A stretch of 64,000 nucleotides of DNA from an uncultured virus (IMG/VR IMGVR_UViG_3300042934_000632). Its lineage: Duplodnaviria; Heunggongvirae; Uroviricota; Caudoviricetes. The position numbers and the translations under genes are program-made. Below, piece by piece: positions 10,463-59,439 of the stretch; the stretch's first letter is position 1; the number at the start of each line of letters is the position of its first letter. The DNA is taken from IMG/VR virus record IMGVR_UViG_3300042934_000632; one strand, given 5' to 3'. Under the pieces are notes generated by a model. That model worked only from the letters and a program-made list of their open reading frames with translations, was not told the origin of the DNA and did not search any database.

Positions 10463-10768
10463 ATGAAAGTCCTACTTCCTAATGGAAATTGGCCTTATAG
10501 TTTTAGACCTCAATTACCGTGTGCTGTCTTGATGACTATTCAATATGAACAGAAAATTTATCATCTTATTCATAGATCAAATTATAATCCTATTTCCTAT
10601 TCGGGTCTTTTACCTAGAGCCCAATTGCTTTACATTGATCCTAATCATACCCACTTACTTACTCTAATCAATTTTTCAGATTTTATGTGGACTGAAGAAT
10701 CAGAGATTGATCTGTTCGAAGAATTTAATAATGAGTATCTATCCCACAAATTACTTACCGATTTCTAG
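10463..10768 (+). CDS. hypothetical protein with a variant C-terminal tag
   Basis: RBS GGAG; ends NNEYLSHKLLTDF. Confidence 0.6.
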   Translation: MKVLLPNGNWPYSFRPQLPCAVLMTIQYEQKIYHLIHRSNYNPISYSGLLPRAQLLYIDPNHTHLLTLINFSDFMWTEESEIDLFEEFNNEYLSHKLLTDF

Positions 10769-11093
10769 GACCAAGAAAGGAATCAGTTTCTGGCTCTTTT
10801 CTTGGTCCTAGAAAAAGATGTTTCCACCTTTTACGACTCTGACATTGCGGAAACAAGAGTTCGTTCACGCGAAGGCTGAACTTATTCTACTTTTTTTCTT
10901 CAACGACAAAATCCCACCTCTCCCCTTTCTATGACTAAACTAGAAAGTGATTACAATGTAACGGCCCGTCCAAAAGGCGTCAGTGGTTTTGTAGGATGCT
11001 ATCCACGAGGGATAGCGGGATCGAGAGAGCACCAGGAAGTTTCGTGGGGACCTGGGTAAAAGTGAAGCATCTTTCTAGAACCAACCAAATGAG

Positions 11094-11417
11094 GTGATCG
11101 TTATGAGTATGGAAGGTATTCTTAAATTCTATCCAGAAGGTTCTATTATCTGGAAAGGAAAACACGATACAAGAGATAATTACTGTTTTATTAAAGTAGT
11201 AAATCGTGAAAGTGGTTGCTCAATCCCTAAAGAATGTTATGAATATTTACACAAAATAGGATTAGGTGAGTTTACTCATGAAGGTAGAAGTTGGCCCTAT
11301 ACGTTGAGTAAAGGCTGGTCTACTATGGTAGATAGTCTCGACGGTATAGAAGTGGTTCCGCCTTTTCATATAAATAATGATACTCTTATCCATATGCTTT
11401 TGGACGAGGAGGATTAA
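11094..11417 (+). CDS. paralogue family A member with C-terminal tag
   Basis: IIWKG...CSIPKECYEYL; ends NDTLIHMLLDEED. Confidence 0.7.
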   Translation: MIVMSMEGILKFYPEGSIIWKGKHDTRDNYCFIKVVNRESGCSIPKECYEYLHKIGLGEFTHEGRSWPYTLSKGWSTMVDSLDGIEVVPPFHINNDTLIHMLLDEED

Positions 11418-11420
11418 TCT

Positions 11421-11762
11421 ATGCGTCCTAATGATTATATTACAAAATATGTTCCTGACGGAGCAATTGTCTGGGCAGGTTTGGACCCAAGTTCTTCATA
11501 CGAAACATATTGCAAGATTTATGTTTACACCTGGAGGGCTTTTGATGAGTGTTATATCCCAGATGAATGTGCCAAATATTTAAAGCGTATGGGACTGCAA
11601 GATTATATTTACCGTGACCCACATTCTAATGGTTATTTAAAAGGCGAATATCGTTTAATGGGTGGATATTATACTTCTTGTGATAGAATGACATATGAAA
11701 CTGTTTATTCTTTTAACAATTCAACTGCTATTACTTTTTTACCAGATTTGGAGGAGCACTAA
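11421..11762 (+). CDS. paralogue family A member with C-terminal tag
   Basis: IVWAG...CYIPDECAKYL; ends NSTAITFLPDLEEH. Confidence 0.7.
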   Translation: MRPNDYITKYVPDGAIVWAGLDPSSSYETYCKIYVYTWRAFDECYIPDECAKYLKRMGLQDYIYRDPHSNGYLKGEYRLMGGYYTSCDRMTYETVYSFNNSTAITFLPDLEEH

Positions 11763-12064
11763 TGAATAGTATAGCTGACTTCTTTCCAGTTAAAAGTGTA
11801 CTTTGGTCGGGGTTGTCACCGATAGTTAATAGTACCTGTCATATCGAAGTTTGTAGTGACCCTTCCCACCACTGCTATATACCTCCAGAATGTGCTAAAT
11901 TTTTAATAAGCATGGGGTATAAAGAATGCATAGTGGAAGATTATTACTCCTGGGAATACGCTTTAAGAGGAGGATTCCATGTAGGTGGCTTAAAAGAACC
12001 AACAGTCACTTTTAAACAAATCTCCAATTCTACTTTTGCAGAATTTTTGAAAGATACTGAATGA
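11762..12064 (+). CDS. paralogue family A member with C-terminal tag
   Basis: VLWSG...CYIPPECAKFL; ends NSTFAEFLKDTE. Confidence 0.7.
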   Translation: MNSIADFFPVKSVLWSGLSPIVNSTCHIEVCSDPSHHCYIPPECAKFLISMGYKECIVEDYYSWEYALRGGFHVGGLKEPTVTFKQISNSTFAEFLKDTE

Positions 12065-13608: not shown

Positions 13609-13677
13609 TTATTTTAATATTCTCTAGGGGGACACATGGTGTGTCCTCTTTTCCATTTCTATAAGGCGGTGATATTT

Positions 13678-14073
13678 ATGAATTACCTTGATCCACGAGA
13701 AGGAAAAGAAATCACAGGTAGTACGGGGGAAATCCGCGTCAGACTCGTTGGTGGATCATTTCATGAATCTGCCTTTGCTACTGTTAAAGAGGGGGACGAA
13801 GTTACCCTTCAAAAAGAACCCAAAAATAAATATGACAGATATGCTATTGTAGTGCTCTCTGAAAATAACCGTGTTTTGGGTTATATTGCCAATAGAGTAG
13901 AAACTATTGGGAGAAACAAAGCAACAAATTCCGCAGCGGATGTATATAGACATATCAACGATAGAACATCAGCTATCATAATTGATAAGAGTCCAAGCTC
14001 TGCCGTACTTTTGATTAATGCTTCGAATGAAGTTTTTTTAAATAGATTAAAGGAGGAGAAGTTCGATGATTAA
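13678..14073 (+). CDS. HIRAN domain protein
   Basis: LQKEPKNKYDRYAIVV...LGYI motif. Confidence 0.8.
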   Translation: MNYLDPREGKEITGSTGEIRVRLVGGSFHESAFATVKEGDEVTLQKEPKNKYDRYAIVVLSENNRVLGYIANRVETIGRNKATNSAADVYRHINDRTSAIIIDKSPSSAVLLINASNEVFLNRLKEEKFDD

Positions 14074-14359
14074 TTCTAGATCATCTTCTTTAGTAGAATT
14101 AATAGAGATGTCTCTCTTAGCTAATCACGAAATTCTAGTTCTTTTATCTCGTAACTCTGGTTTTAGTTCACAAGCTGGAGAAAAAGAAGTAGGTCGTATT
14201 TTAAAATCTATTGGTTATATGAACGAACCTTGGTTTAAAGTTGAATGGAGCATCAGAAGAACTACCAACAATTATCCATTAGAGGATCTTATCATTATTT
14301 CTTCAACGGACTTTAATAATGAAAATCTTTCTAAGATTTATCTTAGAGATATGGATTAG
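14066..14359 (+). CDS. paralogue family B member with C-terminal tag
   Basis: WFKVEW...NNYPLEDLI. Confidence 0.65.
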   Translation: MINSRSSSLVELIEMSLLANHEILVLLSRNSGFSSQAGEKEVGRILKSIGYMNEPWFKVEWSIRRTTNNYPLEDLIIISSTDFNNENLSKIYLRDMD

Positions 14360-14373: not shown

Positions 14374-14655
14374 ATGATTACAGAAGAAATTATTTTAAGC
14401 CATATTCGTCATGGAAAAGTGATAGAAGTTTTGCTATCTCGATATTCTGAATACGCTGAACAAGCAAAAGAAGATGAAATCGGAAAAATTACTGGCAAAC
14501 TGGATGATGATGGTGATCTTGAAGGTATATGGTTTCAAGTCGAATGGGATTCAGGCGATGTGAATTATTATCATTTATCAGATCTGATTTTCATTAATTT
14601 TTCTACGGATAATTACAGTATGCTTTCTCTTCTCCAAGATATCGACGACGTATAA
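14374..14655 (+). CDS. paralogue family B member with C-terminal tag
   Basis: WFQVEW...NYYHLSDLI; ends NYSMLSLLQDIDDV. Confidence 0.7.
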   Translation: MITEEIILSHIRHGKVIEVLLSRYSEYAEQAKEDEIGKITGKLDDDGDLEGIWFQVEWDSGDVNYYHLSDLIFINFSTDNYSMLSLLQDIDDV

Positions 14656-14795
14656 AGTAAAGTCACAATAGGATTTATACGCTTCGATATAGTCAAGACC
14701 CGTAGTCTATTACTGGGTTGAAGCCACGTAACCTTCCATCGGAAACGTGGCTGTCTATAAATCTGCCGAAGATCCTATTGTGACTTTACTTTATA
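14651..14795 (+). ncRNA. hairpin cassette with UAUAC/CGAA internal loop
   Basis: 25 bp closing stem TATAAAGTAAAGTCACAATAGGATT / GATCCTATTGTGACTTTACTTTATA. Confidence 0.65.
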
Positions 14796-14812
14796 ATAAG
14801 GTGGGAACATTT

Positions 14813-16972
14813 ATGAGAACGTTAGTCCTTACTCGTGGTATAATGGCTTCTTCAAAATCAACATGGATTGCTGAAAATGGTCTTGCACCTTTTACTTTAT
14901 CTAGTGATAACTTGCGTCTACTCCATTCTGCTCCACAGCTTCAAGAAGATGGCAAGCAGGTAATAGCGGGATCGCAAGAAGGTAAGATCTGGAAACTTTT
15001 ATTTGAAGTTTTGGAGCGACGTATGCAAAACGGCGATTTTACCGTCATTGATGCAACACATATTACTTCGAGTTCCATTTCTGAGTATCGTGAACTGGCT
15101 AATAAATATCGTTATCGCGTGTTTGTAGTGGATTTTACTAATGTTCCTTTGGAAATAGCTTTAGAGCGGAATAAAAATCGTGAAGAATATAAGTATGTTC
15201 CAGAACATAAGATTGAAATAGCTTATGCTAAGCTTTCAGAAAATCATGTGCCTTCTTATGCGAAAGTTATTAAACCAGAAGAATTCTGGGATCATGTTTC
15301 ATATACAAAAATTGATTACAGCTCTTATCGCAAAATTCATCATATCGGGGATGTTCATGGATGCTACAGTGCATTAATGACTTACCTTTCAGGCGAAATG
15401 AAGGAAGACGAGTTGTATATTTTTGTTGGTGATTATCTAGACCGCGGCATTCAGAACCGCGAAGTTTTAGAATTCCTCATTCAGATTAAAGACCTTCCAA
15501 ATGTTATTCTTCTTGAAGGTAATCATGAAACTCATCTTCGCAAATGGTCAATGGATGAAACCGTTAAAAGTTTAGCATTCAACCACTATACCGAAAAAGA
15601 GATTCATGATGTTAATAAGTCCGCTGTTCGTGAACTGTGCAGAAAGTTCAGACAGGTTTGTTATTATGAATATTACGGCAAAACAGTGCTCGTCACTCAT
15701 GGAGGCTTATCCTGCATTCCAAACGAACTTGCTTTGATCTCGACTTCTCAATTTATTAAAGGAGTAGGAAATTATGAAGTTGATATTGATGCTATTTTCT
15801 CGGCTTCTGAACAAGATGGAACGTACCAGGTCCATGGTCATCGCAACATCTTCAGACTGCCTATGCAAGCCGCTGAGCGTTCTTTTAACCTGGAGGGTAG
15901 AGTTGAATCAGGAGGAGACTTAAGGGCTCTTACACTAACTCCTGAGGGGTTTCAAGAGCATTGTATCCAGAATCATGTTTTTACAACAGAACATTCTCCA
16001 ATGCCTCCCGTTGTAGGTTCCAAAACAACTACAGACAATTTCATTGAATACCTTCAGTCACACAAAATGGTTAAAGAAACACAGATAACTGATCATATTT
16101 CATCTTTTAACTTTACACGTAAAGCATTCAATGATGGCGTTTGGGATACGCTTAACATCAAGGCTCGCGGCCTTTTTGTGAATAAGCATACTCGAAAGAT
16201 CGTTAGCCGATCTTATGATAAGTTTTTTAATATTGACGAAGTTCCAGCTACAAAGATGGGAACATTAGCCAATACCCTGGAATTTCCTGTGATTTTGTCA
16301 GAAAAACCGAATGGATACCTAGGTATTATCGGGTATGATGAGGAGACAGATGAACTGATCTACTCTTCCAAGTCTGAAACTCGTGGTACTTATGCGGTAT
16401 CATTCAGAAAACTTTTCGAAGAAAAAGTTCCTGTTGAAATACGTGCTTGGCTTAAAGGATATCTTTACGGAAATGACGTGTCGATAACTTTTGAGGTTAT
16501 TCTTCCACAAGAAGATCCACACATCATAGAATATAAAGAGAATACTTTGATCTTACTCGATATTATCCAGCGAAATGTTCAGTTCCAAAAGAGATCTTAT
16601 TCCGAGGTTGTTGAGCTCGCAATGAATCTTCTTCTTCCATATCGTAAAATCAAATATGTCTTCCATAACTGGTTAAGTTTCTATCACTGGTATCAAAACG
16701 CATCTCAAGATTATTCTGTTAAAGAAGAAGGGTATGTCCTTGAAGATAATTCAGGTTTTATGACAAAGATAAAATTACCGTACTATCTTTTCTGGAAGCA
16801 AATGCGTACAGCAAAATTCCAGGTGAAGATGGAGGGCTATATGCTTCCTCAGTGGTTGCCGCCAATTCCTGACGATCTTAAAAATTTCGTTGGGTGGGCT
16901 AAACAGCAAGATCAGGAGTATTTGAAACGCGTGGATGTTATCCAGTTGCGTACAGATTACGAGGGCTCTTAA
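14813..16972 (+). CDS. Pnkp-like RNA repair enzyme: kinase + metallophosphoesterase + RNA ligase
   Basis: RGIMASSKST P-loop variant and IDAT; GDVHG/GDYLDRG/GNHE/HGG/HGH; EKPNG and EGYV...KIK ligase motifs. Confidence 0.85.
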   Translation: MRTLVLTRGIMASSKSTWIAENGLAPFTLSSDNLRLLHSAPQLQEDGKQVIAGSQEGKIWKLLFEVLERRMQNGDFTVIDATHITSSSISEYRELANKYRYRVFVVDFTNVPLEIALERNKNREEYKYVPEHKIEIAYAKLSENHVPSYAKVIKPEEFWDHVSYTKIDYSSYRKIHHIGDVHGCYSALMTYLSGEMKEDELYIFVGDYLDRGIQNREVLEFLIQIKDLPNVILLEGNHETHLRKWSMDETVKSLAFNHYTEKEIHDVNKSAVRELCRKFRQVCYYEYYGKTVLVTHGGLSCIPNELALISTSQFIKGVGNYEVDIDAIFSASEQDGTYQVHGHRNIFRLPMQAAERSFNLEGRVESGGDLRALTLTPEGFQEHCIQNHVFTTEHSPMPPVVGSKTTTDNFIEYLQSHKMVKETQITDHISSFNFTRKAFNDGVWDTLNIKARGLFVNKHTRKIVSRSYDKFFNIDEVPATKMGTLANTLEFPVILSEKPNGYLGIIGYDEETDELIYSSKSETRGTYAVSFRKLFEEKVPVEIRAWLKGYLYGNDVSITFEVILPQEDPHIIEYKENTLILLDIIQRNVQFQKRSYSEVVELAMNLLLPYRKIKYVFHNWLSFYHWYQNASQDYSVKEEGYVLEDNSGFMTKIKLPYYLFWKQMRTAKFQVKMEGYMLPQWLPPIPDDLKNFVGWAKQQDQEYLKRVDVIQLRTDYEGS

Positions 16973-16999: not shown

Positions 17000-17419
17000 A
17001 TGTCATATCATTACTATACAACCTCAACAACTTCGACAACTTATAGTGGTTATTACAATACAAGTCAAAGAAAGAAAGCTGCTAAAAAACACAGACCCTT
17101 ATCAGAAGAGTCAGAATTACTATCCATCATGATATCCGACAAATTAAAAAGGAATAAGGAAGTATTCATAAGCCTTAAAATGGATACCCGTATTTTAAGG
17201 GATTTGAATAGGGTCTCTGGGGGTACGATAAATCAGACAACTGTTTTAAAAGTACTCGGTGTTTACGTGAGTTCCTTTGGAAATCATAGCGTTATTACTC
17301 AGCATCCTGACATTTTAGCAGGAAGAGATATTAAAATATCTTTTTGTGATTTGGAACCAAAATTTGTAAATGAATTCGATACGGAAGATATGTTAATCAT
17401 ACTTCCTGATTTTGAATGA
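17000..17419 (+). CDS. hypothetical protein with C-terminal tag
   Basis: RBS AGGAGGTG; ends TEDMLIILPDFE. Confidence 0.7.
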   Translation: MSYHYYTTSTTSTTYSGYYNTSQRKKAAKKHRPLSEESELLSIMISDKLKRNKEVFISLKMDTRILRDLNRVSGGTINQTTVLKVLGVYVSSFGNHSVITQHPDILAGRDIKISFCDLEPKFVNEFDTEDMLIILPDFE

Positions 17420-18917: not shown

Positions 18918-21531
18918 ATGAGCTTATCTAGGGAAAAGGAAGTGATAGTTTACGTGACCTCGACGCAAGATTTATCTTTAGCCGCTGCGAAAGAAGAGCG
19001 GGGAGTCAGTTCACAACGCTTTACGCATCTTCATCTGCACACACCAGGTAGTTTGCTAGATGGATTTTGTCGTATAGCTGATCTAGTAAAACTCGCTAAA
19101 GAATTTGGTATGGACGCCGTGGGTATTAGTGACCATGGAAATTGCCATTCTCATGTCGAGTTTTTTCAAGCTTGTAAAGAAGCAGGAATTAAACCAATTA
19201 TGGGTATGGAAGGTTATATTACGCCTCACCGTAGTTGGAAAAAACCTGAGTTTACAGCCAAGCATTACAAAAAGCTTTCCTATCGTTATCGCACTAAAGC
19301 AGAGATGCAAGAAGACGGCGCGGAACAAATCGTTATGGATGGCAAGAATCTCGTTCCTAATGAGATCATTGATGCCTATCTCCGTAGTGAATTGGCAAGC
19401 CTAAACCGTTTGATTAAAGATGAGAGAGAAAACGGTAATGATCCAGAGCTGTTGAAGGATTTGTACGCGGCCAAGGATGATACTCGTATCTCAATCAATG
19501 CTTTGATCAGCTCAGGAGATCTTATTTATTCAGCGGTTCCTTCTCTAGCGACAGCAAATCTTTTTGAAATGCGGCCGAAGACGGCACATCTTTTAATGAT
19601 TGCACGAACGAACGAAGGATATCAGAATCTGCTTAAAATCACCAGTATTGCTCAGCTTGAGGGTGTTTATTACAAACCACGTGCTGATTATAAGTTAATT
19701 AAACAGTATGGGAAAGGCATCATTGCTACTAGTGCGTGTCTTGGCGGAGAAATCCCTCAGCTTATTCGTAAAGGGAAAGAAAGACTCGCTAAGAACATTG
19801 CACGGTTTTACCAAAGCTGCTTCGATGAGTTTTACTTTGAGCTACAACCAAGCCATTTGGAAGAGCAACACTATGTAAATGAAGTCCTGATCCGCTGGAG
19901 CGAAGAAATGGATATTCCGCTCGTTGCGACTTCAGATGCTCATATGCTGCGTCCAGAAGACCTGCCTATTCACTCCGCATTAACCAAGATTGGTAAAGCC
20001 CAAGATGATGCGGATATCAACGTTTATGAAAGCTGTTACTTCAAAAGCGCAGATGAAATGCTAGAAGGCGGAATGCCTGTAATTGCACTAGAGAATGCGT
20101 ATCTCATTTCTCAGAAGTGTAATGTTGAGCTTCCCCTCGGTAGAATTCACCTGCCTAGATTCACAGTTCCACCCGAGTATACATCAGACACCTACCTTTT
20201 AGAGCTTACAGACAATGCTTTGTTCCAGATGGCGCTCGAAAAGGATATTGATATCACCGTATATAAAGATCGTTTGAAGGAAGAACTTCTCGTTATCTTC
20301 GAGAAAGGATTTTCTGATTACTTTCTTATCGTTTGGGACTATATTGCTTTTGCGCGGCGTCAAGGCATTCTAGTAGGACCAGGCCGCGGTAGTGCAGGAG
20401 GTTCTCTTGTTGCCTATCTGCTGAAAATCACCAATATTGACCCTATCAAGTATGATCTTCTCTTCGAACGGTTCCTTGACCCTTCGCGTATGGACTTGCC
20501 CGATATTGACAGTGACTTTGATTATGTACGAAGACACGAGGTTGTTGAATATATCGCTGGAAAATATGGTCAAGATCATGTAGCTCAAGTTATTACATTC
20601 GGGTCTCTATCTTCAAAAGCGGCATTCAAAGACGTGGGCCGTATTTTAGGTATTGACCATAATATTATTAACACAATGAATAAACTAATTCCTGTTGTCT
20701 TTGGAAAGCCTTATGGCATTGACAAGGCCTTAGAAGAAGTCGAAGAATTAAGGGAGTATGAAAGACGCTATCCTGAAATGTTCGATCTTGCTCGAAAAGT
20801 TCATTCCCTGCCTCGGTCTACAGGTATTCATGCTTGTGCTCTTGTTATTACACCAGAGCCTATTGAGGAAATGGTACCCTTGATCAAGGGAAAAGCAGGA
20901 GAAATCGTTACCCAGTACGACGGCCCTACATTAGCGGAACAGTACGGTATCCTCAAGGTTGACTTGTTGGGACTGAAAAACCTATCTGTCATTGATATCG
21001 CCCGTAAGCTTGTCCTAGAGCGATATGACCGCGATATCGATCCTGATACATTAGAGTTTGATGATCCGCGCGTATTCAAGACTATTCAACAGGGGCACAC
21101 GGCGGGGCTCTTCCAAATTGAGAGCAGCGGGATGACCAAAATGTTTCAAAGTCTAAACCGCGTTACATTCGATGACCTTGTAGCAGGAATAGCTTTATAC
21201 CGTCCAGGCCCAATGCAGCATATTCCCGACTACTGTGCTCGTGCAAATGGATACACAGAGGTAACTTATCCATGTGAAGAACTGCGTCCTGTGCTAGAAA
21301 AAACGCATGGTATTGCCGTCTATCAAGAATCTATCATGGCAATGTCCAGAGTTATGGCGGGATACACAAAAGCTGAGACTACTAAGCTGCGTAAAGCGAT
21401 TTCCAAGAAAAAAGAAGAGGTTATGCGTCCAGCCTTGGATGAGCTTTTCAAACGAGTCACGATGAATGGCCACTCGGAAGAATTGGCAAAGAAAATCATC
21501 GACATCATCGAGCCTTTCGTAGGCTATGCGT
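18918..21531 (+). CDS. dnaE: DNA polymerase III alpha subunit, exon 1 (start may be GTG 18954)
   Basis: PHP HLHLHT..SLLDG, GPGRGSAGGS, PDIDSDF; ends at ...GYA-T. Confidence 0.92.
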
Positions 21532-23211: not shown

Positions 23212-24730
<1,519 letters not shown>

Positions 24731-26683: not shown

Positions 26684-26732
26684 TCAAGGAGCTCATTCTA
26701 AGTCTCCTTGGCAAATAACGAGGAGGCTTAGA

Positions 26733-27989: not shown

Positions 27990-28181
27990 GTGTTGCCACA
28001 GGGATTTATCGAGCATCCAGTTATGAGACAAGCTATTCAAGATAGTGCTTGGGATGTCATTGGAGAAATGATTCATCAAGCATCAAAAGCATTGGCTCAT
28101 TTGGAAGTGATCGAAATTGATTCTTTAAAGGGTAATGTCAATAACGAAAATTTTCTTTGCAGACTATCTGACTTTGAATAA
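27990..28181 (+). CDS. small protein with C-terminal tag
   Basis: ends NENFLCRLSDFE. Confidence 0.65.
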   Translation: MLPQGFIEHPVMRQAIQDSAWDVIGEMIHQASKALAHLEVIEIDSLKGNVNNENFLCRLSDFE

Positions 28182-28193: not shown

Positions 28194-28415
28194 ATGTTAC
28201 CAGATATTGATATTGATATGTACCCTTATAGAGCTGCGGGTATAGAATGTACAGCTATGAATATCATAAGCATGATAGTTAAAAAAGCTCCTCCATTAGA
28301 ATCATTCAATCGCGCTCATGCCTTGTCGTATAGCTTTATCAGCCATCCTGACACCTATGAAGGCTTGCTTACTAGTAACGAAAAATGCATGTTTTTACTG
28401 GATGATCAGGAGTGA
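28194..28415 (+). CDS. small protein with C-terminal tag; N-terminus LPDIDID echoes the DnaE PDIDxD motif
   Basis: ends NEKCMFLLDDQE; contains FNRAHALSY resembling DnaE FNKSHS.AY. Confidence 0.65.
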   Translation: MLPDIDIDMYPYRAAGIECTAMNIISMIVKKAPPLESFNRAHALSYSFISHPDTYEGLLTSNEKCMFLLDDQE

Positions 28416-28420
28416 TACCT

Positions 28421-28564
28421 ATGATCGATGAATACAAGCCTATGTCTAGTGAGGAAATAGATCTTTGGATAAAAAAAGTACAGAAGGAAGTTAATGAAAC
28501 TTTAATCCGATTATTGTGGAGAACGAACGAGGATTATTCTAAAGATTTACAAGATTGTGAGTAA
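28421..28564 (+). CDS. 47 aa protein with C-terminal tag (not in ORF track)
   Basis: MIDEYKPM...RTNEDYSKDLQDCE*; RBS AGGAG. Confidence 0.65.
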   Translation: MIDEYKPMSSEEIDLWIKKVQKEVNETLIRLLWRTNEDYSKDLQDCE

Positions 28565-28576: not shown

Positions 28577-28924
28577 ATGTCCTGGGCATGGATCACTGGT
28601 GAACTATCGACTAGAGACGTAACTGAAATCGGATCAAGGAGAGGGAACATTGGATATACTCCGCAGCCTGTCACTTTCCCTGTGTCAAGAGAACAGCAAA
28701 TAGCTAGACCGCTCAATCAGTCTCATATTTATACGTCATTAGATGCTACTGAGTATCTAGTGAATAGTAGTAGGAGTATGCACTATTCAGGTTCCCTAGA
28801 GGAATTTAATCTCATCGTTCGAGATCGCGCTCGCCTGATAGAAAGAGATATTTACCAAACATTTTTTGCTTTTAGCTCCAGATCGAACGAAGATTATATC
28901 AAAAATCTACAAGATATTGATTAG
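28577..28924 (+). CDS. small protein with C-terminal tag
   Basis: ends NEDYIKNLQDID. Confidence 0.65.
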   Translation: MSWAWITGELSTRDVTEIGSRRGNIGYTPQPVTFPVSREQQIARPLNQSHIYTSLDATEYLVNSSRSMHYSGSLEEFNLIVRDRARLIERDIYQTFFAFSSRSNEDYIKNLQDID

Positions 28925-29456: not shown

Positions 29457-29861
29457 GTGGGTATACATAAAGGATTAGGAGGTGCTAAGCAAATGTATCT
29501 ACTTGAAATCAAATATGAAGATAAAATTCATATTATTGAGAAGATCCAAGTTTTGGAGCAATCTTCTGATTACCCAGAAGTTAAGTTTGCTTACATTGAA
29601 GTGCCACATAACGTACTTCAGCTTTCTCATAACGATAGGTTTCTACGTACTTTTTTTAGCGGTATAGGTTCAAGTTGTTACCCTATTATTTATCAAGACC
29701 CTGATTTCCCTATGGATGAAAATGCACAAACCTCAAGATGTGTGTCTAGTAGTCCGTATCGATGGATTGAAATATCTACTTCGGAAAAAGGAAAACTTGC
29801 AACCTTACTTACCGATGCAGTTAATCAAGAATTTGCTCGTCACTTACCTGATTTTGAGTAG
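29457..29861 (+). CDS. paralogue family C member with C-terminal tag (start probably ~29493)
   Basis: FAYIE...YRWIEIS; ends NQEFARHLPDFE. Confidence 0.65.
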   Translation: MGIHKGLGGAKQMYLLEIKYEDKIHIIEKIQVLEQSSDYPEVKFAYIEVPHNVLQLSHNDRFLRTFFSGIGSSCYPIIYQDPDFPMDENAQTSRCVSSSPYRWIEISTSEKGKLATLLTDAVNQEFARHLPDFE

Positions 29862-29872: not shown

Positions 29873-30241
29873 ATGTATACTGTTGAAATTACAGCGAATG
29901 GTCTTCATTTGATCAAGGATGTCTTATACCTTGAAAAGATGACGGATTGGGATAATCAAAGATGGGCGTTTATTAAACTAGATAGTAAAGAAGAACTTCA
30001 AAGATATCGACAAGACGATAGCTTGAGGCATATATTTGGTGTTTTCGGCTGGACCGCATACACTTTTGAATATATACAGCCAGGTTTTCAACTTGCAGAT
30101 AAGCATGATGCGACAATGTTTGGACAAGACTCTATATATCGATGGATTGAAATATCGAATTCATTAAAAGGTCAACACGCTGTACTCCATCGGGCATTAT
30201 ATAATGAAGAATATTTGCCTATACTATCAGATTATGAATAG
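29873..30241 (+). CDS. paralogue family C member with C-terminal tag
   Basis: WAFIK...YRWIEIS; ends NEEYLPILSDYE. Confidence 0.7.
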   Translation: MYTVEITANGLHLIKDVLYLEKMTDWDNQRWAFIKLDSKEELQRYRQDDSLRHIFGVFGWTAYTFEYIQPGFQLADKHDATMFGQDSIYRWIEISNSLKGQHAVLHRALYNEEYLPILSDYE

Positions 30242-30252: not shown

Positions 30253-30642
30253 GTGTATACCGTATACCTGGCATCCGATCCAGAAAAATTTCGATTTAAG
30301 GTCTGGGCTTTTGAGAAAGTGCATGGAAATTTGGATGCAACTACAAGAGCGTGGGCTTGTATTAAATTCAAAGACAGGGCAGAACATGATAGATTTAAGA
30401 CTGATCCTATCACTTCAGTTCATTATGAGGGAAGCGCTGGCCCACCTAAAAACGATGTCTATTACCGCATCGAAGGTTTCAGCATTGAAGATGATAAAAT
30501 TTTAGAAGAGATGGAACGTGAAAATAGCTGTTATCGCTGGTTACTATCTTCTAACAACATAGAAGATGGAACATATTGGATATACGAACTTGAACCTCAA
30601 TCTAATGAAGATAGTCTATGCTTGCTTTGCGATGCTGAGTAA
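30253..30642 (+). CDS. paralogue family C member with C-terminal tag
   Basis: WACIK...ILEEME...YRWL; ends NEDSLCLLCDAE. Confidence 0.7.
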   Translation: MYTVYLASDPEKFRFKVWAFEKVHGNLDATTRAWACIKFKDRAEHDRFKTDPITSVHYEGSAGPPKNDVYYRIEGFSIEDDKILEEMERENSCYRWLLSSNNIEDGTYWIYELEPQSNEDSLCLLCDAE

Positions 30643-30972: not shown

Positions 30973-31311
30973 GTGATGTTAATGAAATTTCTTGTCTATA
31001 AAAAGAATCCTGATTTGTTTCGAAAGAGAGTTCTTGTCATCGATATATGGATGAAAACAGATAAGTATGCCTGCTTTGAACTTGCCGAGGACGAAAGCTG
31101 TCCTTTTAGCTGCGGAGAAGGTGCTCCAGGATCTGATAGTGATATCTTATATGTTGATCCATCTTTTCAGCTCACCGAAGAAATATTAGAAGAAATGGAT
31201 GCTTCAGATACTCGGTTTAAGTGGGTTAAACTTAGCAATGAACATGTTGAATTCGTTGATGTCCTTGATACAAATGAATCTATGGTCAGTATTCTACGAG
31301 AGTGTGAATAG
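30973..31311 (+). CDS. paralogue family C member with C-terminal tag
   Basis: YACFE...ILEEMD...FKWV; ends NESMVSILRECE. Confidence 0.7.
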   Translation: MMLMKFLVYKKNPDLFRKRVLVIDIWMKTDKYACFELAEDESCPFSCGEGAPGSDSDILYVDPSFQLTEEILEEMDASDTRFKWVKLSNEHVEFVDVLDTNESMVSILRECE

Positions 31312-44948: not shown

Positions 44949-45260
44949 ATGCGGTTGATGAATCAAATACCTTTAGAATGCGTAATACCAGGAATGCGCG
45001 TAAGGCTATCACCACAATCTCCATTTCACGAAGCTGGTCAGTCTTGTGATTGGGAAGGAAACGAATATGATGGGACCGTAACTTATGTTCACAAGGCTAA
45101 TATAGATTGGTTCCCTATCAATGTAATATGGGACGGCGAGCTAGATCATTCTATTCCAGTCCTTGAACAAAAAGGAGAGTATTGTTATGGTGTTTCTGAT
45201 TTGATTTTTCTCCTTGTAAATAATGAACAGCTTACACTATTCCTGGAAGATTTCGATTGA
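44949..45260 (+). CDS. paralogue family B-like member with C-terminal tag
   Basis: PGMRV...GTV...WFPINVIWD...YGVSDL; ends NEQLTLFLEDFD. Confidence 0.7.
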   Translation: MRLMNQIPLECVIPGMRVRLSPQSPFHEAGQSCDWEGNEYDGTVTYVHKANIDWFPINVIWDGELDHSIPVLEQKGEYCYGVSDLIFLLVNNEQLTLFLEDFD

Positions 45261-45270
45261 GAGGTGCATT

Positions 45271-45567
45271 ATGCAGAATATCCTATCGGATTTCAAACCT
45301 GGTACGCGAGTCGGGATGTCGAAGAACTCTGCATTTTCCCATTTAAATCAATCTTTTGATGCTAGGGGAAATGAATGTCTTGGAACAGTAATAACTATCA
45401 GCTCTAGTGGAAGATGGTTTCCAATCAATGTTCTATGGGATTACGAGGTAAGTCCTGGTTGGAAAGCATCCTGGCACCGAGGTACCTATAGTTACGGCCC
45501 AACAGATCTTGTGATTATTGGCGACAGTAATAGTAGTATGGTAGAATATCTATTAGATATAGAATAG
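45271..45567 (+). CDS. paralogue family B-like member with C-terminal tag
   Basis: PGTRV...GTV...WFPINVLWD...YGPTDL; ends NSSMVEYLLDIE. Confidence 0.7.
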   Translation: MQNILSDFKPGTRVGMSKNSAFSHLNQSFDARGNECLGTVITISSSGRWFPINVLWDYEVSPGWKASWHRGTYSYGPTDLVIIGDSNSSMVEYLLDIE

Positions 45568-51029: not shown

Positions 51030-51743
51030 ATGAGTAGGATATTTATCACGGGCGATCTTCATGGTGAAGTGGATATTCACCGTCTCAATACTGGGGGATT
51101 TGTTGAGCAGAAAGATCTTACAAGAGACGATTACCTAATTATTGCTGGTGATTTTGGACTCGTCTGGAACATGGATAAAACAGATCAATACTGGCTGAAG
51201 TGGATGAATGAAAAGAACTTCACTACACTTTTTATTGATGGCAACCATGAAAACTTTGATCTGCTAGATGCTTATCCTGTAAAGGAATGGAATGGCGGAA
51301 AGGTACATCAGATCATGCCGAACATCTATCACTTGATGCGTGGACAAATGTTTACGATCCATGGTAAAAACTTCTTTACCTTTGGTGGAGCATCCTCTGT
51401 AGATATCGAGAGAAGAACAGAAGGAAAGTCCTGGTGGCCTAGAGAAATTCCTTCATATGCTGAGTTCGAAGAAGGACTGGCTACGCTAGAGAAACATGGC
51501 TGGAAAACAGACTATGTTATTACACATAATTGCCCGACAAAAACACTAGAGTGGATGGCTGCAAAGTATGGGTTCTATTTGAAGCCACCTGATGCTGTTA
51601 ATGCTTACTTGGATCGAATCAAAGAGAACTTGGAATACAAACACTGGTTTTTCGGCCACTTCCATGAGAATTTAAATCTTCCAGACAACTTGGCCATGTT
51701 ATACTACGACATTGTCGAGCTGAAAGGAGAAGAGAACTCATGA
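51030..51743 (+). CDS. calcineurin-like metallophosphoesterase
   Basis: GDLHG, GDFG, DGNHEN, THNCP, FGHFH. Confidence 0.9.
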   Translation: MSRIFITGDLHGEVDIHRLNTGGFVEQKDLTRDDYLIIAGDFGLVWNMDKTDQYWLKWMNEKNFTTLFIDGNHENFDLLDAYPVKEWNGGKVHQIMPNIYHLMRGQMFTIHGKNFFTFGGASSVDIERRTEGKSWWPREIPSYAEFEEGLATLEKHGWKTDYVITHNCPTKTLEWMAAKYGFYLKPPDAVNAYLDRIKENLEYKHWFFGHFHENLNLPDNLAMLYYDIVELKGEENS

Positions 51744-52171
51744 AGATCGCTTTAATCATTCTAATCATTACTCAACTAGTGTCTATCCTGATTATTATTG
51801 ATCACAAAATAGCAATTAAAATGTTGCAAGAAATGGTCCATGATTATATGAATAGATATTGGCTCCAGAGTATGAAAGATGCAGGTGCCGAAATTGTTTC
51901 TATTGATAAGGAGGACATGTTGTGAAAGAAGTTGGCAAGTGTGATGAATGCTTAAGCCTTGAAGAACTAACACCTTACGAAAACTCAGACGGTTTTGTTT
52001 CTTATCTCTGCAACGATTGTATTGGTGACTATGTTTTTCACGATTTTATTAAGGAACTAGAAGAAGAAGATAATGAAGAGCTGGAAGAAGACCTGGATGG
52101 AGAAGACGAAGATTAAGTCTTCTTTTTTCTTTGCTCTGTGGTATAATATGAAAACGAAAGAAGGTTTATCC

Positions 52172-52659: not shown

Positions 52660-53433
52660 ATGAGTATTGATTTAGCAAAGAAGCACTTGATTGATCTGAC
52701 GAAGAAAGCAACAGAGGTTGTTCAAAAGGTTGGGTTGGGAGATCAAAAAGCTAAAGTCGCCGTTGCTTTTGATGTCTCTGGATCTATGAGTGATCGCTAT
52801 CGTAAAGGTGAAGTACAAGAAGCAGTGGATCGTATCTTGGCTCTTGCTGTAAATTTTGATGACAACCGAGCGCTAGATATGTTTGCTTTTGATACTCGCG
52901 GCCATAGCATTGGTGAAATTAGTGAAGAAAACTTCTATCAATTCATTAATAAGAATGTGCAACCTCTAGTGGGTGGCGGCACAGCGTATGCTCCTGTCAT
53001 GAAAATGATATTAGCTAGCTATGGGATTTCGATTGATGGAGAGACTGCTCCACAACCAGTAGTAAAGAAACGTTTCGGGTTCTTCGGTAAGAAAGAAGAA
53101 GCTCCTGTGGTAACACAGAGCAATGGGCCACTGGATGAGCCCATCTTTATTATCTTCGTAACCGACGGGGAAAACGGGGACCATCAAGCCACTGAGCATG
53201 TTGTTCGGGAAGCCTCTAAGTATGGTGTGTTCTTCAAGTTTGTAGGTATTGGAAATGAACGTTTCTACTTCTTGGATAAACTGGATAACCTTACAGGTCG
53301 TTTGATTGACAATGCTAACTTCATTAAAGTGAATGACATTGCAAATATTAATGAAGAAGATTTATATGCTGATCTTCTCAAAGAATTTCCTGAGTGGCTC
53401 GTCGAAGCACGTAGCAACAATTTGATTAAGTAA
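52660..53433 (+). CDS. vWA domain protein (TerF-like vWA)
   Basis: MIDAS DVSGSMS, GGTAYAP, FVTDG, FVGIG, IDNANF. Confidence 0.85.
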   Translation: MSIDLAKKHLIDLTKKATEVVQKVGLGDQKAKVAVAFDVSGSMSDRYRKGEVQEAVDRILALAVNFDDNRALDMFAFDTRGHSIGEISEENFYQFINKNVQPLVGGGTAYAPVMKMILASYGISIDGETAPQPVVKKRFGFFGKKEEAPVVTQSNGPLDEPIFIIFVTDGENGDHQATEHVVREASKYGVFFKFVGIGNERFYFLDKLDNLTGRLIDNANFIKVNDIANINEEDLYADLLKEFPEWLVEARSNNLIK

Positions 53434-56878: not shown

Positions 56879-56907
56879 TTGACCTAAGCGTTACTCTTTG
56901 ATAGAAT
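56879..56907 (+). promoter_or_regulatory. sigmaA-type promoter
   Basis: TTGACC-17 bp-TAGAAT with extended TG. Confidence 0.6.
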
Positions 56908-57685
56908 GAAAGACCAGGTTTGAGTAGGTGCTATCGGGTGAACCAATCACCTTGTAGCACCTTTTTTTATAGAAAGGAGTCAATGAAAATGAGAGAAATG
57001 AATATCAAGCCTTTAAGATGTGAGGTTCTTCGTCAGCAACTTTGGGAAATCCAGTTCGCTGAAGACCCTGCAAAACATGTCGCTAAACTTGCAAGGGTAT
57101 TAGAGGAAATTATTGATATGATTGACCCATTACCTGGTGCGCCAAAGGAGGAAGTATGATGTTTGATCTTCGAAACGACTTTAAAACAAGACTTAATCTG
57201 CCTGATGATACAAGTTTTAGTTTTAAAGAAATTCGATTATATGAAAAAATTGATTGGTGGACTAAAAAATTTAAAAATGGTGATGAAACCAAAGCTATTG
57301 ACTTGAAAAACCTTCTTGATACAAAACATGAATATGATACTAGCATACTGTTATTGAAAGATCTTCTCAATGATTATGTTAATCACGGTAAATATGAAGA
57401 AGTTTCTAACGTTGTTACCCGTATGAAAATACTTGAACATCGCTGGAATTGTTTTAATATGATCCAAATTTAAAGGAGGAAATATAATGTTTGGGCAAAA
57501 GAAAAAAAAGGTTGAGAATGCATACACTCTTGTAATTGATTGGGACAAGGTAAAGACGGTAGAAGATATGACGTCTATCCTAAGACTGATACACCCATTT
57601 TCTTTTATCGTTCTTAACGAAGAAGCAGCTGAAAAAGGTCGTATACTTCATCTTACGAAAAAAGTAATAAAATAGGAGGCACCAT

Positions 57686-58885
57686 ATGATTCCACAAAAG
57701 TTTGTTGAAGAGCTTAAGAGCAAGATTAACATCCTTGATGTCGCTTCTAGCTACTTTGACATTGAGAAATCTGGATCGGTTTATCAGGCTTACTGCCTCC
57801 ATGGAGATAAGAATACAAAGTCTTTAACGTTTTTTCCTGAAACGAATACCTTCCATTGTTTTGGATGCGGTGCGGGTTCAAAGCAGGTTACAGACGGATC
57901 AGATATTGTATCCTTCATGATGTGGGTAGAGAAATGTAACTTTCCAGAGGCTGTAGAGAAACTTGCAGCTCTAGGTGGAGTCGAGGTTCCTCAGAAAGAT
58001 TTGAATGCAGAAGAAAAGAAGCGGCAAACGATGCTGTTCAAAACACTTCAAGAAAATCGACAGTATTATAACACTCTACGTGGTAATGAGGAGATGCTTA
58101 AGTATCTCTGGGGACGTGGTATTGGGAATATGGAGATCGAGAAATGGAGAATCGGATACGTCGGCAAGGACGATGTCACCAAGGCAGCAGGACGTATTGC
58201 TTTTGCGATCATGGATAGCTGGGGAGATACAGTTGGATTCTCTTATCGAAACATGGAATCCTACATACCCTCTGCGGACAATCCAGATACGGGTCCGAAG
58301 TATATTAACTCTCCGAAGTCAGCCCTATTCGACAAGGGAGCGATCCTGTACGGACTGAACTTTATCAAGAAGATGATCCGCGAGAGGGATTATGTAGTCA
58401 TCGTAGAGGGGTTCGGCGATGCGATCATTGGTCAGAAATATGACTGTCCATTTGTAGGCCTCATGGGGACCTCGTTAACTCAGGCTCATTTGGATCTACT
58501 TAGCCTCTATACTAAGAACATTTATGTCTGGTTTGACGGTGATGCTGGAGGACTGAATGCATCTCTTCGTCATATCGACGCGCTACGTTCCAGAGGTTTC
58601 TTGGTTAAAGTTATCTACACACCGAATAATGATCCTGATGATGTCATTCAGGGTGTTGGTTCTGATCTTGAAGAATGGATTATGGATAACGCTATTCTTG
58701 CAGGACAATTTCAGATCAATCTCATCATGAATAAGCACAATTCGGCGATGACAGAACAGAAAATCAAAACAGTTTCTCTCATTAAAAATCTGCTTGCTGG
58801 AATCTCTGATGGACACGAGAAAGAAATCTACTGTAATCAGGTTGCTGAACATTTGGGTGTAGATCCAATCACTTTAAGGAGGTAG
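57686..58885 (+). CDS. dnaG: DNA primase
   Basis: CHC2 zinc finger CLH...FHCFGC, PKYINSP, TOPRIM VEGFGD, FDGDAGG, DPD. Confidence 0.95.
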   Translation: MIPQKFVEELKSKINILDVASSYFDIEKSGSVYQAYCLHGDKNTKSLTFFPETNTFHCFGCGAGSKQVTDGSDIVSFMMWVEKCNFPEAVEKLAALGGVEVPQKDLNAEEKKRQTMLFKTLQENRQYYNTLRGNEEMLKYLWGRGIGNMEIEKWRIGYVGKDDVTKAAGRIAFAIMDSWGDTVGFSYRNMESYIPSADNPDTGPKYINSPKSALFDKGAILYGLNFIKKMIRERDYVVIVEGFGDAIIGQKYDCPFVGLMGTSLTQAHLDLLSLYTKNIYVWFDGDAGGLNASLRHIDALRSRGFLVKVIYTPNNDPDDVIQGVGSDLEEWIMDNAILAGQFQINLIMNKHNSAMTEQKIKTVSLIKNLLAGISDGHEKEIYCNQVAEHLGVDPITLRR

Positions 58886-59178
58886 AGATATGAAACGAAC
58901 TAAAACAAAAATTAAACTGGAGAAGCTGGATGATCTGGCTTCTTCTATTATTTTTTATACTCAAGGTGATCGAAAATATTTCACAGAAAAACACCTTGAA
59001 GGGTATAGATTTAAAGCAGGCGCAAACTTTCAAACTCTTATTGATTTGGGTTTTAGAGCTCGTAAGCATGGTGGGTTTAAGTTTGAGCGTGAAGTTTCTT
59101 ATGTTCGAGCAGAGTTAGAGCAATATATTGAACCGTTAAGAGTTAGGGATCGATGGTTCTTCCCCTGGAATTCATGAC

Positions 59179-59439
59179 ATGGATGCTCCAAAATTCAACG
59201 TAAGGGATGAGGTTGTTGTCACTTTTCCTGACGGATCTAGGATCAGAGGGAAAATATATCCTATTCCTGGGGCTTTTTTAAATGAGAAAGGCTACCTCGT
59301 GCTATATGAACATACAAGATTTTATATTGAAAATGGGAAACGTTATTTCACAAGCGGAGCAAGACACCCTGAGTATATGATCACTTTATTCATAGAGAAC
59401 AATGACTACTACCACCTTCAACTCGACGACCTGGAATAG
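59179..59439 (+). CDS. small SH3-like protein with C-terminal tag
   Basis: PKFNVRDEVVV; ends NDYYHLQLDDLE. Confidence 0.65.
   Translation: MDAPKFNVRDEVVVTFPDGSRIRGKIYPIPGAFLNEKGYLVLYEHTRFYIENGKRYFTSGARHPEYMITLFIENNDYYHLQLDDLE

Follow-up and report, generated by a model that had tools for sequence, protein, structure and literature searches.

A lineage-specific C-terminal tail on many small proteins of a large Bacillota-type phage, tentatively read as a docking tag

The 64,000-nucleotide stretch of DNA analysed here (the window), from the uncultured virus IMGVR_UViG_3300042934_000632, encodes a series of small proteins with differing bodies that share a 12-residue peptide at their extreme C-terminus. 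Taking the window together with the IMG/VR record G001 (251,543 bp, estimated complete), which is 99.99% identical to it, we counted 27 strong carriers of this tail, 26 in G001 and one gene (27990-28181) present in the window only, besides about nine weaker variants, and roughly a tenth of the phage proteome carries the tail. The best explanation, which we advance tentatively, is that the tail is a portable docking tag linking many bodies to one lineage-specific and probably phage-encoded reader; that the reader is single, that the phage encodes it, what the carriers bind and when they act are the parts of this explanation that we infer.

A preliminary description of this DNA had reported a shared C-terminal tag on about 19 proteins, and all 16 tails and three looser variants were indeed found at the corresponding stop codons, three of the 19 being weak when scored with a position matrix (see below). 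When the last 16 amino acids (aa) were trimmed off, the 19 window proteins fell into paralog groups A (stops at 11417, 11762 and 12064), B (14359 and 14655), C (29861, 30241, 30642 and 31311) and D (45260 and 45567), plus singletons. They are as follows, with residues beyond the tail given after it and matrix scores in bits:

10463..10768, plus strand: 101-aa protein with a weak tail variant (ending NNEYLSHKLLTDF; 3.8 bits), body weakly like group C (E=0.013)
11094..11417, plus strand: 107-aa carrier of group A, tail NDTLIHMLLDEE plus D
11421..11762, plus strand: 113-aa carrier of group A, tail NSTAITFLPDLE plus EH
11762..12064, plus strand: 100-aa carrier of group A, tail NSTFAEFLKDTE
13636..14073, plus strand: 145-aa HIRAN-domain protein (Pfam HIRAN, E=2.5e-10) with a weak tail variant (ending NEVFLNRLKEEKFDD; 5.1 bits)
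14066..14359, plus strand: 97-aa SH3-like carrier of group B, variant tail NNENLSKIYLRDMD (-2.2 bits, one-residue insertion)
14374..14655, plus strand: 93-aa SH3-like carrier of group B, tail NYSMLSLLQDID plus DV
17000..17419, plus strand: 139-aa carrier with a singleton body, tail TEDMLIILPDFE
27990..28181, plus strand: 63-aa carrier, probably helical, tail NENFLCRLSDFE, within the 3.5 kb missing from G001
28194..28415, plus strand: 73-aa carrier, tail NEKCMFLLDDQE
28412..28564, plus strand: 50-aa carrier, tail NEDYSKDLQDCE, top matrix score (28.7 bits)
28577..28924, plus strand: 115-aa carrier, tail NEDYIKNLQDID
29457..29861, plus strand: 134-aa carrier of group C, tail NQEFARHLPDFE
29873..30241, plus strand: 122-aa carrier of group C, tail NEEYLPILSDYE, modelled
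30253..30642, plus strand: 129-aa carrier of group C, tail NEDSLCLLCDAE
30973..31311, plus strand: 112-aa carrier of group C, tail NESMVSILRECE, with Glu at position 10
44949..45260, plus strand: 103-aa SH3-like carrier of group D, tail NEQLTLFLEDFD
45223..45567, plus strand: SH3-like carrier of group D (114 aa from the first start, 83 aa in its database form), tail NSSMVEYLLDIE, modelled
59179..59439, plus strand: 86-aa carrier with a singleton body, tail NDYYHLQLDDLE

Enrichment of the tail was measured on 123 greedily chosen plus-strand open reading frames (ORFs) of the window, of at least 35 aa each, with the strict motif N.{6}L.D.[ED].{0,2}$. Fourteen of these ORFs end with the motif, compared to a mean of 0.0135 and a maximum of 1 in 2000 residue shuffles, so the enrichment over shuffled controls proposed for this DNA is real. 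None of 259 minus-strand ORFs and none of 115 off-frame plus-strand ORFs ends in this way, and when the motif was no longer anchored to the end it still occurred 14 times in 18,094 positions, always within 2 residues of the C-terminus. A looser expression recovered 17 of the 123 ORFs, one of which (ending at 52465) is a chance match on a DUF7352 protein. At the DNA level, the back-translated pattern matches 11 times in the window compared to 0.13 expected (100 shuffles, maximum 2).

For most carriers, a GGAGG sequence and the next start codon lie within a few bases of the gene end, the arrangement that would be expected if the conserved element were a nucleic-acid signal such as a ribosome-binding site (RBS), a translational coupling device or a recombination boundary. 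However, Leu8 is specified by all six of its codons (CTT 3, TTA 3, TTG 1, CTC 2, CTA 5, CTG 2), both codons are in use for each of the Asn, Asp and Glu residues of the tail, and the GGAGG sequence is located downstream of the stop codon. The mean pairwise identity of the tails is 0.49 over 36 nucleotides and 0.37 over 12 residues. The codon diversity at the four conserved positions, the RBS placed after the stop and a nucleotide identity of only 49% indicate that selection acts on the peptide; with off-frame and opposite-strand ORFs at 0 of 374, they refute a signal in the nucleic acid, to which we give practically no credence, and confirm that the tail is not an effect of the next gene's RBS.

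A position matrix was then built from 16 tails and applied to the 365 ORFs of G001 at five offsets each, with a threshold of at least 10 bits. It retrieved 26 C-termini, ten of them outside the seed, compared to 4 of 73,433 internal positions. One of these four internal matches is a full tail (27.5 bits) followed by 28 more residues rich in Gly, Lys and Trp, in a 145-aa ORF (G001 200744-201181), and a frameshift, the loss of a stop codon or a precursor form could account for this extension. A motif-agnostic search, in which gapped residue triples in the last 16 residues were compared with interior windows, ranked N.{6}hydrophobic.{3}[DE] first in G001 (33 tails, p=4e-27). The consensus of the 26 tails reads Asn at position 1 (25/26), Glu, Ser or Asp at 2, any residue at 3, hydrophobic residues at 4 and 5, any residue at 6, a hydrophobic residue at 7, Leu at 8 (26/26), any residue at 9 (Pro in six), Asp at 10 (22, with Glu in four), a hydrophobic residue at 11 and Glu at 12 (21, with Asp in five). 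Seventeen of the 26 tails stop at position 12 and nine run 1-3 residues further; over the last 12 residues the net charge averages -3.15. In our reading of this pattern the Asn and the acidic residues look like a helix N-cap, and the tail would be, roughly, a short N-capped helix of about eight residues followed by x-D-hydrophobic-E. It is separated from the body by a linker of 2-5 residues, on carriers of 50 to 225 aa (median 112).

The bodies are diverse. With the tails cut, the 27 strong carriers form 20 BLAST clusters (E<1e-3), and the addition of the nine weak variants gives 36 proteins in 25 clusters. The earlier statement that the bodies are unrelated is therefore right in that several families are represented, but it has to be qualified, as paralog groups A to D exist and groups B and D are distantly related SH3-like domains. 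A profile of four proteins of these two groups matches 30 proteins among 1.84 billion representatives, including tandem-repeat proteins and a protein with eight MIB_HERC2 repeats (E=2.6e-4); the window proteins of groups B and D have no Pfam match, and their homologs match MIB_HERC2 and SH3-C_UBE2O below or near the cut-off. The AlphaFold model of the 45223-45567 protein (11 sequences) is an SH3-like small barrel with a predicted local distance difference test score (pLDDT) of 82, in which the tail forms a helix at residues 103-111, past the last strand, at pLDDT 66-79. Foldseek aligned it with PsaE and the CUL7 CPH domain (target-normalised template-modelling score 0.56-0.72, probability 0.97-1.0, E 0.007-0.03). 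In group C, body identity is 23-33% and only 10 alignment columns are invariant, three of them in the tail. Its modelled member, 29873-30241 (5-sequence alignment, pLDDT 78, predicted template-modelling score 0.73), has a single segment below pLDDT 50, which is the tail (111-122). The modelled body would be an alpha/beta fold without family match; fold searches gave a best Foldseek E of 0.34 and a best VIA-align Z of 3.5, with no clear relative and weak rows for SH3/Tudor small barrels. Since several bodies may share a small-barrel architecture, as these weak rows for group C suggest, 20 clusters probably overstates the number of independent folds. In both models the tail lies outside the predicted fold, either disordered or as a short helix.

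Homologs from elsewhere indicate that the tail is an addition to the domain, because they end without it: in the tandem-repeat homologs (P0006/7/11) each domain ends with D-L-x-x-hydrophobic, after which the next domain starts, and the single-domain homologs P0024, P0026 and P0028 stop at the same D-L-x-x-hydrophobic point. L002, a tandem SH3-repeat protein on an unrelated contig, has no tails either. Two outside homologs, P0010 and P0015 (from another source, each on a 1,186-bp contig), carry tails of the G001 type. These data bear on the view that the tail is no signal at all, being instead a helix with a structural or oligomerisation role that came down from one ancestral domain, whose descendants, the carriers, are very divergent paralogs. 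Many carriers do lie in local paralog clusters, several bodies are or may be small beta-barrels, and the tail is helical at intermediate confidence in the SH3-like model. Yet the bodies span 50-aa helical proteins, a 225-aa P-loop-like protein and a HIRAN domain, the domain homologs elsewhere lack the tail, three of the 10 invariant columns of group C fall in the tail despite the low body identity, and in a second phage (see below) an unrelated membrane protein shares its tail with eight SH3-like paralogs. We consider this origin highly improbable.

Among annotated phages, two jumbo phages of Bacillus, Edson and vB_BceM_WH1, are nearest, with a RecA identity of just 55-56%. The exact G001 back-translated DNA pattern is not present in Edson. 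Around its E1 cassette, many small proteins end with N-x6-[LM]-[KR]-x-[ED]-x3, and over the whole genome 33 of 329 ORFs end with N.{6}[LM][KRN].[DE].{2,5} (1000 shuffles, mean 0.17, maximum 2). This motif is terminal in 33 of its 43 occurrences, 19 of the 33 lie outside the region where it was first seen, and the 33 carriers, all on the plus strand, form 19 body clusters. The motif-agnostic search in Edson returned N.{7}[KR].[DE] (38 tails, p=6e-43). Cross-matching of the two expressions is close to nil, with the Edson type on 1 of 365 ORFs in G001 and the G001 type on 0 of 329 in Edson. A third version was found in G003, a 264-kb IMG/VR contig whose E1 is 50% identical, where nine tails N-x-[EG]-A-K-x-L-L-S-K-E-[WYF] all end at position 12 (p=4e-11) and four of the nine tagged genes directly follow the cassette. 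Common to the three versions are Asn1, Leu or Met at position 8 and an acidic residue at position 10 or 11; the ends differ, the terminal residue being Glu or Asp in G001, hydrophobic in Edson and Trp or Tyr in G003, and the net charge passes from -3.15 through -0.85 to +0.44. Tail-less G001 SH3-like carriers (224.2-225.0 kb) gave six BLAST hits in Edson, five of them on proteins with the Edson-type tail. The tail thus evolves in concert, homologous bodies bearing their own lineage's version, and the simplest cause would therefore be one reader per lineage, to which all tails are kept fitted.

Taken together, the terminal anchoring, the selection on the peptide, the 20 body families, the position outside the folds, the absence from homologs elsewhere and the concerted divergence support a portable docking or sorting peptide. 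This part of the preliminary description stands; the term amphipathic helix, which it also used, is only roughly right for a short N-capped helix that often has Pro at position 9.

A second system was found in three metagenome loci (L018-L020) obtained by a search for homologs of P0030, in which eight SH3-like paralogs and one unrelated membrane protein end with [YW]-x-D-F-x-E-R-I-K-E-R-L. The tailed genes of this metagenomic phage are located at:

L018, about 2996-7795: tails of the second system
L019, 1186-6442: tails of the second system
L020, 75-3062: tails of the second system

One further gene has the motif internally, followed by 14 residues. The tailed genes lie among NAD-salvage, radical-SAM and tRNA-synthetase-like genes, and no homolog of any candidate reader (see below) was detected in the 13 kb examined. 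The existence of such loci suggests a recurrent design, the library of small proteins with a private tail in common.

The concerted change of the tail could also be explained by a host hub reached through motif mimicry, with a conserved host reader (a chaperone, protease, polymerase or division protein) and three tail versions for three hosts. The lineages probably infect different hosts, the recorded host of Edson being B. cereus and the closest homologs of the G001 AAA protein being named from Paenibacillus, and on the phage side the readers are putative, known as candidates only. According to the available part of one source (PMC10132805), viruses commonly use short C-terminal peptides to bind host hubs, a point that we count for this explanation. 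Several results speak otherwise. KLEB27-3, a Bacillus phage with the same E1/JAB cassette, is without the carriers and the tail as a set, four phage genes match the presence/absence profile of the tag exactly, and the tail, compared by eye, is unlike three hub-binding peptides (the SSB tip, the clamp motif and ssrA). The tip of SSB, the single-stranded DNA-binding protein, is an acidic run followed by [IL]-P-F; like the tails, this tip (...DDDIPF) is an acidic, terminal-anchored hub-binding peptide, but it belongs to one protein with many readers, whereas here many proteins presumably have one reader, and 0 of 26 carrier tails end with P-F, their ends being D-x-[ED] plus 0-3 residues. The beta-clamp motif is a pentapeptide like Q-L-[SD]-L-F, and the position table of the 26 tails contains no Gln-Leu start and no terminal Leu-Phe. 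The ssrA tag and the ClpX C-motif-1 have a non-polar end, L-A-A-COOH, which is not matched by tails that are acidic (-3.15) and end with Glu or Asp. A host-encoded reader is in our view unlikely, while deserving serious attention. The canonical acidic tip itself is found in the window:

40160-40600: SSB with the tip ...DDDLPF

This tip is a distinct and well-known C-terminal hub peptide within the same window.

To identify genes whose distribution follows that of the tail, the three tagged genomes (G001, Edson and G003) were compared by tblastn (E<1e-3) with four tagless genomes examined whole, namely Bacillus phage KLEB27-3 (217 kb), G004 (244 kb, E1 39% identical), Bacillus phage TsarBomba and Enterococcus phage phiEF24C-P2. 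In these four, the motif-agnostic search returned only generic Lys-rich or Cys-rich ends (top p 1e-7 to 1e-10), and none of the 26, 33 and 9 carrier bodies of the tagged genomes has a homolog there (E<1e-4). The genes compared were:

52660..53433, plus strand: vWA-TerF-like candidate reader, 257 aa (Pfam PF10138, E=1.3e-56, 192 bits compared to a cut-off of 29.4); tagged 3/3, tagless 0/4
166..993, plus strand: 275-aa candidate reader or hub with a low-complexity middle, same profile as the tag; tagged 3/3, tagless 0/4
1610..3289, plus strand: 559-aa candidate reader or hub, coiled-coil-like in the middle and Pro/Ala-rich at the end, profile as for the tag; tagged 3/3, tagless 0/4
G001 215246-215662: 138-aa protein; tagged 3/3, tagless 0/4
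7596..8972, plus strand: JAB/PRTRC_A-like protein, 458 aa (Prok-JAB E=0.002, PRTRC_A E=5e-7); tagged 3/3, also in tagless KLEB27-3 and G004
9019..9981, plus strand: ThiF/E1-like protein of PRTRC type, 320 aa (ThiF E=1.2e-12, PRTRC_ThiF E=1.8e-31); tagged 3/3, also in tagless KLEB27-3 and G004
Cassette gene of 259 aa: tagged 3/3, also in tagless KLEB27-3 and G004
G001 212013-213131 (L013:12013-13128), in the carrier arm: single-module classical AAA protein, Cdc48-like (best PDB matches AFG2 and VCP, E=3e-8); tagged 3/3, also in tagless TsarBomba and phiEF24C-P2

The distribution is not a plain reflection of distance, because KLEB27-3 is as close to G001 as Edson and G003 are (E1/JAB identities of 47-48%, 41-44% and 40-50%, respectively). 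Among 50 further E1-bearing viral records, the vWA protein is present in just three, all of the G003 type, and no E1 loci other than those of the G003 type have flanks enriched in tails (top 4 of 80). The viral matches of a vWA alignment search are likewise solely contigs of the G003 type. In G003, a single stretch of 18 kb encompasses the vWA gene, four tagged genes, the cassette and homologs of the 275- and 559-aa genes. These data make the vWA-TerF-like protein, together with the 275-aa and 559-aa proteins, for which no family match was found in Pfam or the ESM Atlas, the best candidates for the reader.

In the vWA-TerF-like protein, the residues of its metal ion-dependent adhesion site (abbreviated MIDAS; DxSxS as DVSGS, GGGT and TDGEN) are intact and conserved in G001 and Edson. 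In the available part of PMC12847986, metal coordination at a MIDAS is completed by a ligand carboxylate, which in the case of C3b/C4b with factor B/C2 is the C-terminal carboxylate of the protein. With that system, as far as this part describes it, the phage would share a candidate vWA with an intact MIDAS and tails with an invariant Asp/Glu near a free C-terminus; the difference is that the phage protein, itself a candidate, is of the TerF-like subfamily, whose members are widespread in bacteria and have no such tails nearby. In our scheme the MIDAS metal would bind the invariant Asp10/Glu11 of the tail or its terminal carboxylate. We regard this protein as a lead and not a finding, a candidate put forward by the presence/absence data.

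The distribution of the PRTRC-like cassette bears on another explanation, in which the tail is the substrate end for an E1/JAB pair, E1 adenylating the carrier C-terminus and JAB trimming the 1-3 extra residues. The cassette occupies 4144-10461 of the window and encodes proteins of 147, 542, 259, 142, 458 (JAB/PRTRC_A-like), 320 (ThiF/E1) and 155 aa; its core (a small protein, about 540 aa, about 250 aa, JAB and E1) is syntenic in Edson, KLEB27-3, G003 and G004. Against the NCBIfam models, PRTRC_ThiF scores 109.3 bits (curated cut-off 144.75) and PRTRC_A 29.5 bits (cut-off 101.8), close E1 homologs bear the database name 'PRTRC genetic system ThiF family protein', PADLOC gives only weak E1-E2 matches for ThiF, and a phmmer search of the JAB-like protein against PDB found no match. 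Many contigs with lengths of 216-254 kb carry E1 homologs. In G001, Edson and G003 the cassette has tagged genes at its flanks, the pattern of tails looks precursor-like (9 of 26 have 1-3 extra residues and one gene has 28), and E1-like enzymes of the ThiF/MoeB/MccB family act on C-terminal carboxylates; in CBASS, a bacterial anti-phage defence, Cap2 adenylates the C-terminus of the CD-NTase. But KLEB27-3 (39-48%) and G004 (30-48%) have E1, JAB and the 259-aa gene and neither tail nor carriers, tail enrichment within 10 kb is lacking at 46 of the 50 further E1 loci, no tail ends with Gly, and the terminal residue varies by lineage, which is unusual for one adenylation pocket. The features of ubiquitin-like (Ubl) E1 substrates (ThiS/MoaD/ubiquitin-like) are also lacking, since no tail contains Gly-Gly and the modelled bodies are predicted as an SH3-like barrel and an unassigned alpha/beta fold rather than beta-grasp. 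We therefore judge this explanation very improbable, and the suggestion that the tail recruits proteins to the Ubl machinery has no specific support, the cassette being present in tagless KLEB27-3 and G004 and Gly-Gly ends being absent. E1/JAB was rejected as the specific reader on account of its presence in these two tagless phages.

Similarly, the AAA protein bears on the possibility that the tail is a degron, by which an AAA+ machine of host or phage, for instance the Cdc48-like AAA with a host peptidase, would remove about 30 early/middle proteins at a set time. This protein is encoded in the carrier arm, has a conserved N-terminal domain of about 70 residues and is 48% identical in Edson and G003, and C-terminal degrons are likewise terminal-anchored. 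SspB-type adaptors have a C-terminal ClpX-binding (XB) tail, and ssrA is a C-terminal degron; in SspB the body binds cargo and the C-terminal peptide docks on the AAA+ machine, and the phage does encode a classical AAA. The sequences are unrelated, however, the linker is 2-5 residues here and long and flexible there, and the AAA is also found in the tagless TsarBomba and phiEF24C-P2 at 45-47% identity. Further, no ClpP, Lon or other peptidase was detected by Pfam in the annotated parts of G001 (the 62-180 kb block being partly scanned), and four near-invariant positions in 12 are more specific than the known ClpX/ClpA C-terminal degrons. Timed removal is an improbable role for the tail, and the AAA protein was rejected as its specific reader owing to its presence in the two tagless phages. 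Many SPO1-like phages (hosts Bacillus, Enterococcus, Brochothrix and Lactobacillus) have an AAA homolog of 45-52% identity, and large coliphages have more distant ones.

The position of the carriers on the genome bears on sorting, whether the destination is the capsid, from which carriers would be ejected, or a compartment or assembly made by the phage. In favour of such a role, sorting signals share the terminal, portable and lineage-specific character of the motif, and the low-complexity and coiled-coil-like regions of the 275- and 559-aa proteins could build a scaffold. However, 25 of the 26 G001 carriers are located within an 87-kb arm (34% of the record) that starts at 197.7 kb, passes through the record ends and stops at 31.2 kb, and the structural block with the portal and terminase genes (minus strand, about 62-180 kb) contains none. 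The arm also contains replication genes, an Apyc1 homolog, Tad2-like, NUDIX, cREC, AAA and DnaJ-domain proteins and sigma factors. The sole minus-strand carrier, a 225-aa protein with a P-loop-like GKT motif (G001 51220-51897), lies beside a sigma-like gene and outside the structural block; a phmmer search of it against PDB gave no match. The capsid targeting sequence of T4 is an N-terminal peptide that the prohead protease cuts off at L/I-x-E, whereas the motif here is C-terminal in 26 of 26 carriers, whose genes are outside the structural block. No chimallin or PhuZ was detected by Pfam in the parts scanned. A sorting role appears quite improbable, and capsid packaging, which the preliminary description had suggested, finds no support in the location of 25 of 26 carriers in the replication/anti-defence arm. 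Among the enzymes of the window annotated by Pfam none has the tag, in agreement with the earlier statement on core enzymes.

Returning to the docking tag, we propose that a 12-residue peptide (N1-[ESD]-x-hydrophobic-hydrophobic-x-hydrophobic-L8-x-D10-hydrophobic-[ED]12-COOH) would be appended to small proteins with bodies as different as SH3-like barrels, small helical proteins, an alpha/beta fold and a 225-aa P-loop-like protein. The tail would plug all carriers into one common reader, bringing them, plus whatever their bodies bind, to the hub, and the carriers would form a library of adaptors or effectors at work while the phage replicates and takes over its host. It is possible, although we hold it with more doubt than belief, that a clade of Bacillota jumbo phages possesses a tag-and-reader system in which 27 or more small binders with unrelated bodies are wired to one phage hub (the vWA and/or the 275- and 559-aa proteins) by a C-terminal peptide of 12-14 residues, a co-evolving code private to each lineage, as an exchangeable adaptor library that would bring host factors, for example defence proteins, to the hub.

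Known systems offer partial parallels. The T4/RB69 proteins gp43, gp55 and gp33 bind the clamp gp45 through C-terminal tails, so that there too unrelated phage proteins use a short acidic-hydrophobic peptide at the extreme C-terminus to reach one phage-encoded hub; they are a handful of replication/transcription proteins, whereas here about 27 small proteins carry another motif in three lineage versions, and no clamp gene is identified as the reader. F-box, SOCS-box and poxviral ankyrin-PRANC proteins use folded modules of 40-50 residues that bind Skp1 or Elongin. The resemblance to the carriers is that one small C-terminal module recurs on many binding bodies, paralogous or not, and connects them to a common machine, in families expanded in large viruses; they differ in that the module is a folded domain there and a 12-residue peptide here, and the link to the phage E1/JAB is not specific by co-occurrence.

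Several points weigh against a phage-encoded docking reader. Clostridia and Streptomyces commonly encode vWA-TerF-like proteins with 34-38% identity, no shared tails were seen near 18 cellular loci of this family, and the phage vWA may have an ordinary Ter-type role. Its global charge shifts in the direction opposite to that expected for complementarity with the tail, while the 275-aa and 542-aa proteins shift as expected. The co-occurrence opposes three tagged lineages to four tagless genomes and is not phylogenetically independent, and the four genes with the profile of the tag may simply belong to the same accessory gene set, so the reader itself is putative. The genomes called tagless are those with no contiguous C-terminal motif by the triple search, which other kinds of tag would escape. 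The lineage versions could equally track different hosts, that is a host-encoded reader. As a degron is also a docking peptide, the results do not separate delivery from destruction. Finally, the number of independent folds is probably below the 20 BLAST clusters.

Most jumbo-phage genes are small orphans that lack a handle for study, and the shared tail supplies three. Through it, about 30 orphans in this phage, and 33 in Edson, a Bacillus phage that can be cultured, are gathered into a single functional class; as a defined peptide of 12 residues it is a bait for seeking the common partner; and its three lineage versions can be compared against one another as a specificity control. If the carriers are takeover or anti-defence adaptors or effectors, a tenth of the proteome would depend on the reader as a single point, and the system, if true, would be a phage counterpart of the F-box families of eukaryotes and the PRANC families of poxviruses. 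A private peptide code that links a library of binders to one hub would be reusable for engineering. Should the tail prove a degron or a sorting signal instead, it would nonetheless be the first such signal to operate on a proteome scale in a Bacillota phage. The same logic, with different tails, seems to have been invented by unrelated giant phages as well (L018-L020).

We found no published description of such a tail, or of the tails of these phages, in a literature search that was thin on subscription journals. Megablast of window 27000-32000 and tblastn of three carrier bodies, both against the annotated phage collection, gave no match, the sole match of one carrier body among 5.8 billion proteins was a 95%-identical copy, and searches for related loci seeded with RecA and with P0010 found none.

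The long ORFs of the window are nearly all on the plus strand, with GGAGG ribosome-binding sites and a G+C content of about 40%, and Pfam identifies it as the replication/nucleotide-metabolism arm of a large Bacillota-type myovirus. Positions 1-24726 of the window correspond to G001 226818-251543 and positions 28235-64000 to G001 1-35766; the intervening 3.5 kb (24727-28234) are missing in G001, both ends of which abut this stretch. The record is therefore cut inside the ribonucleotide reductase region and the real genome is about 254-255 kb. Genes for NrdI, NrdF, RecA, ThyA, DHFR, NrdD/G, UvrD and primase are also found in the window (Pfam), together with the following:

18918-21557 and 21998-22933: polymerase III alpha subunit, split (Pfam)
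23561-24733 and 25793-26683: nrdE in two pieces, with a GIY-YIG/I-TevI-like endonuclease gene (24908-25504) between them, as in a group I intron
14747-16972: 741-aa fusion of polynucleotide kinase (AAA_33), metallophosphatase and T4-type RNA ligase 1 (RNA repair), with tagged genes on both sides
1-147: 3' end of the Apyc1 (anti-Pycsar) homolog (E=1.6e-62; full gene G001 226188-226964)
28866-29255: Tad2-like gene (E=7e-13), with a 59-nt overlap with the end of the tagged gene 28577-28924

The counter-defence genes (the Apyc1 homolog and the Tad2-like gene) are interspersed among the tagged genes. The early arm also encodes three small IDEAL-domain proteins (G001 215754-216586 and 47277-47591) and a 209-aa protein with a C-terminal, DnaJ-like J domain (G001 217472-218101).

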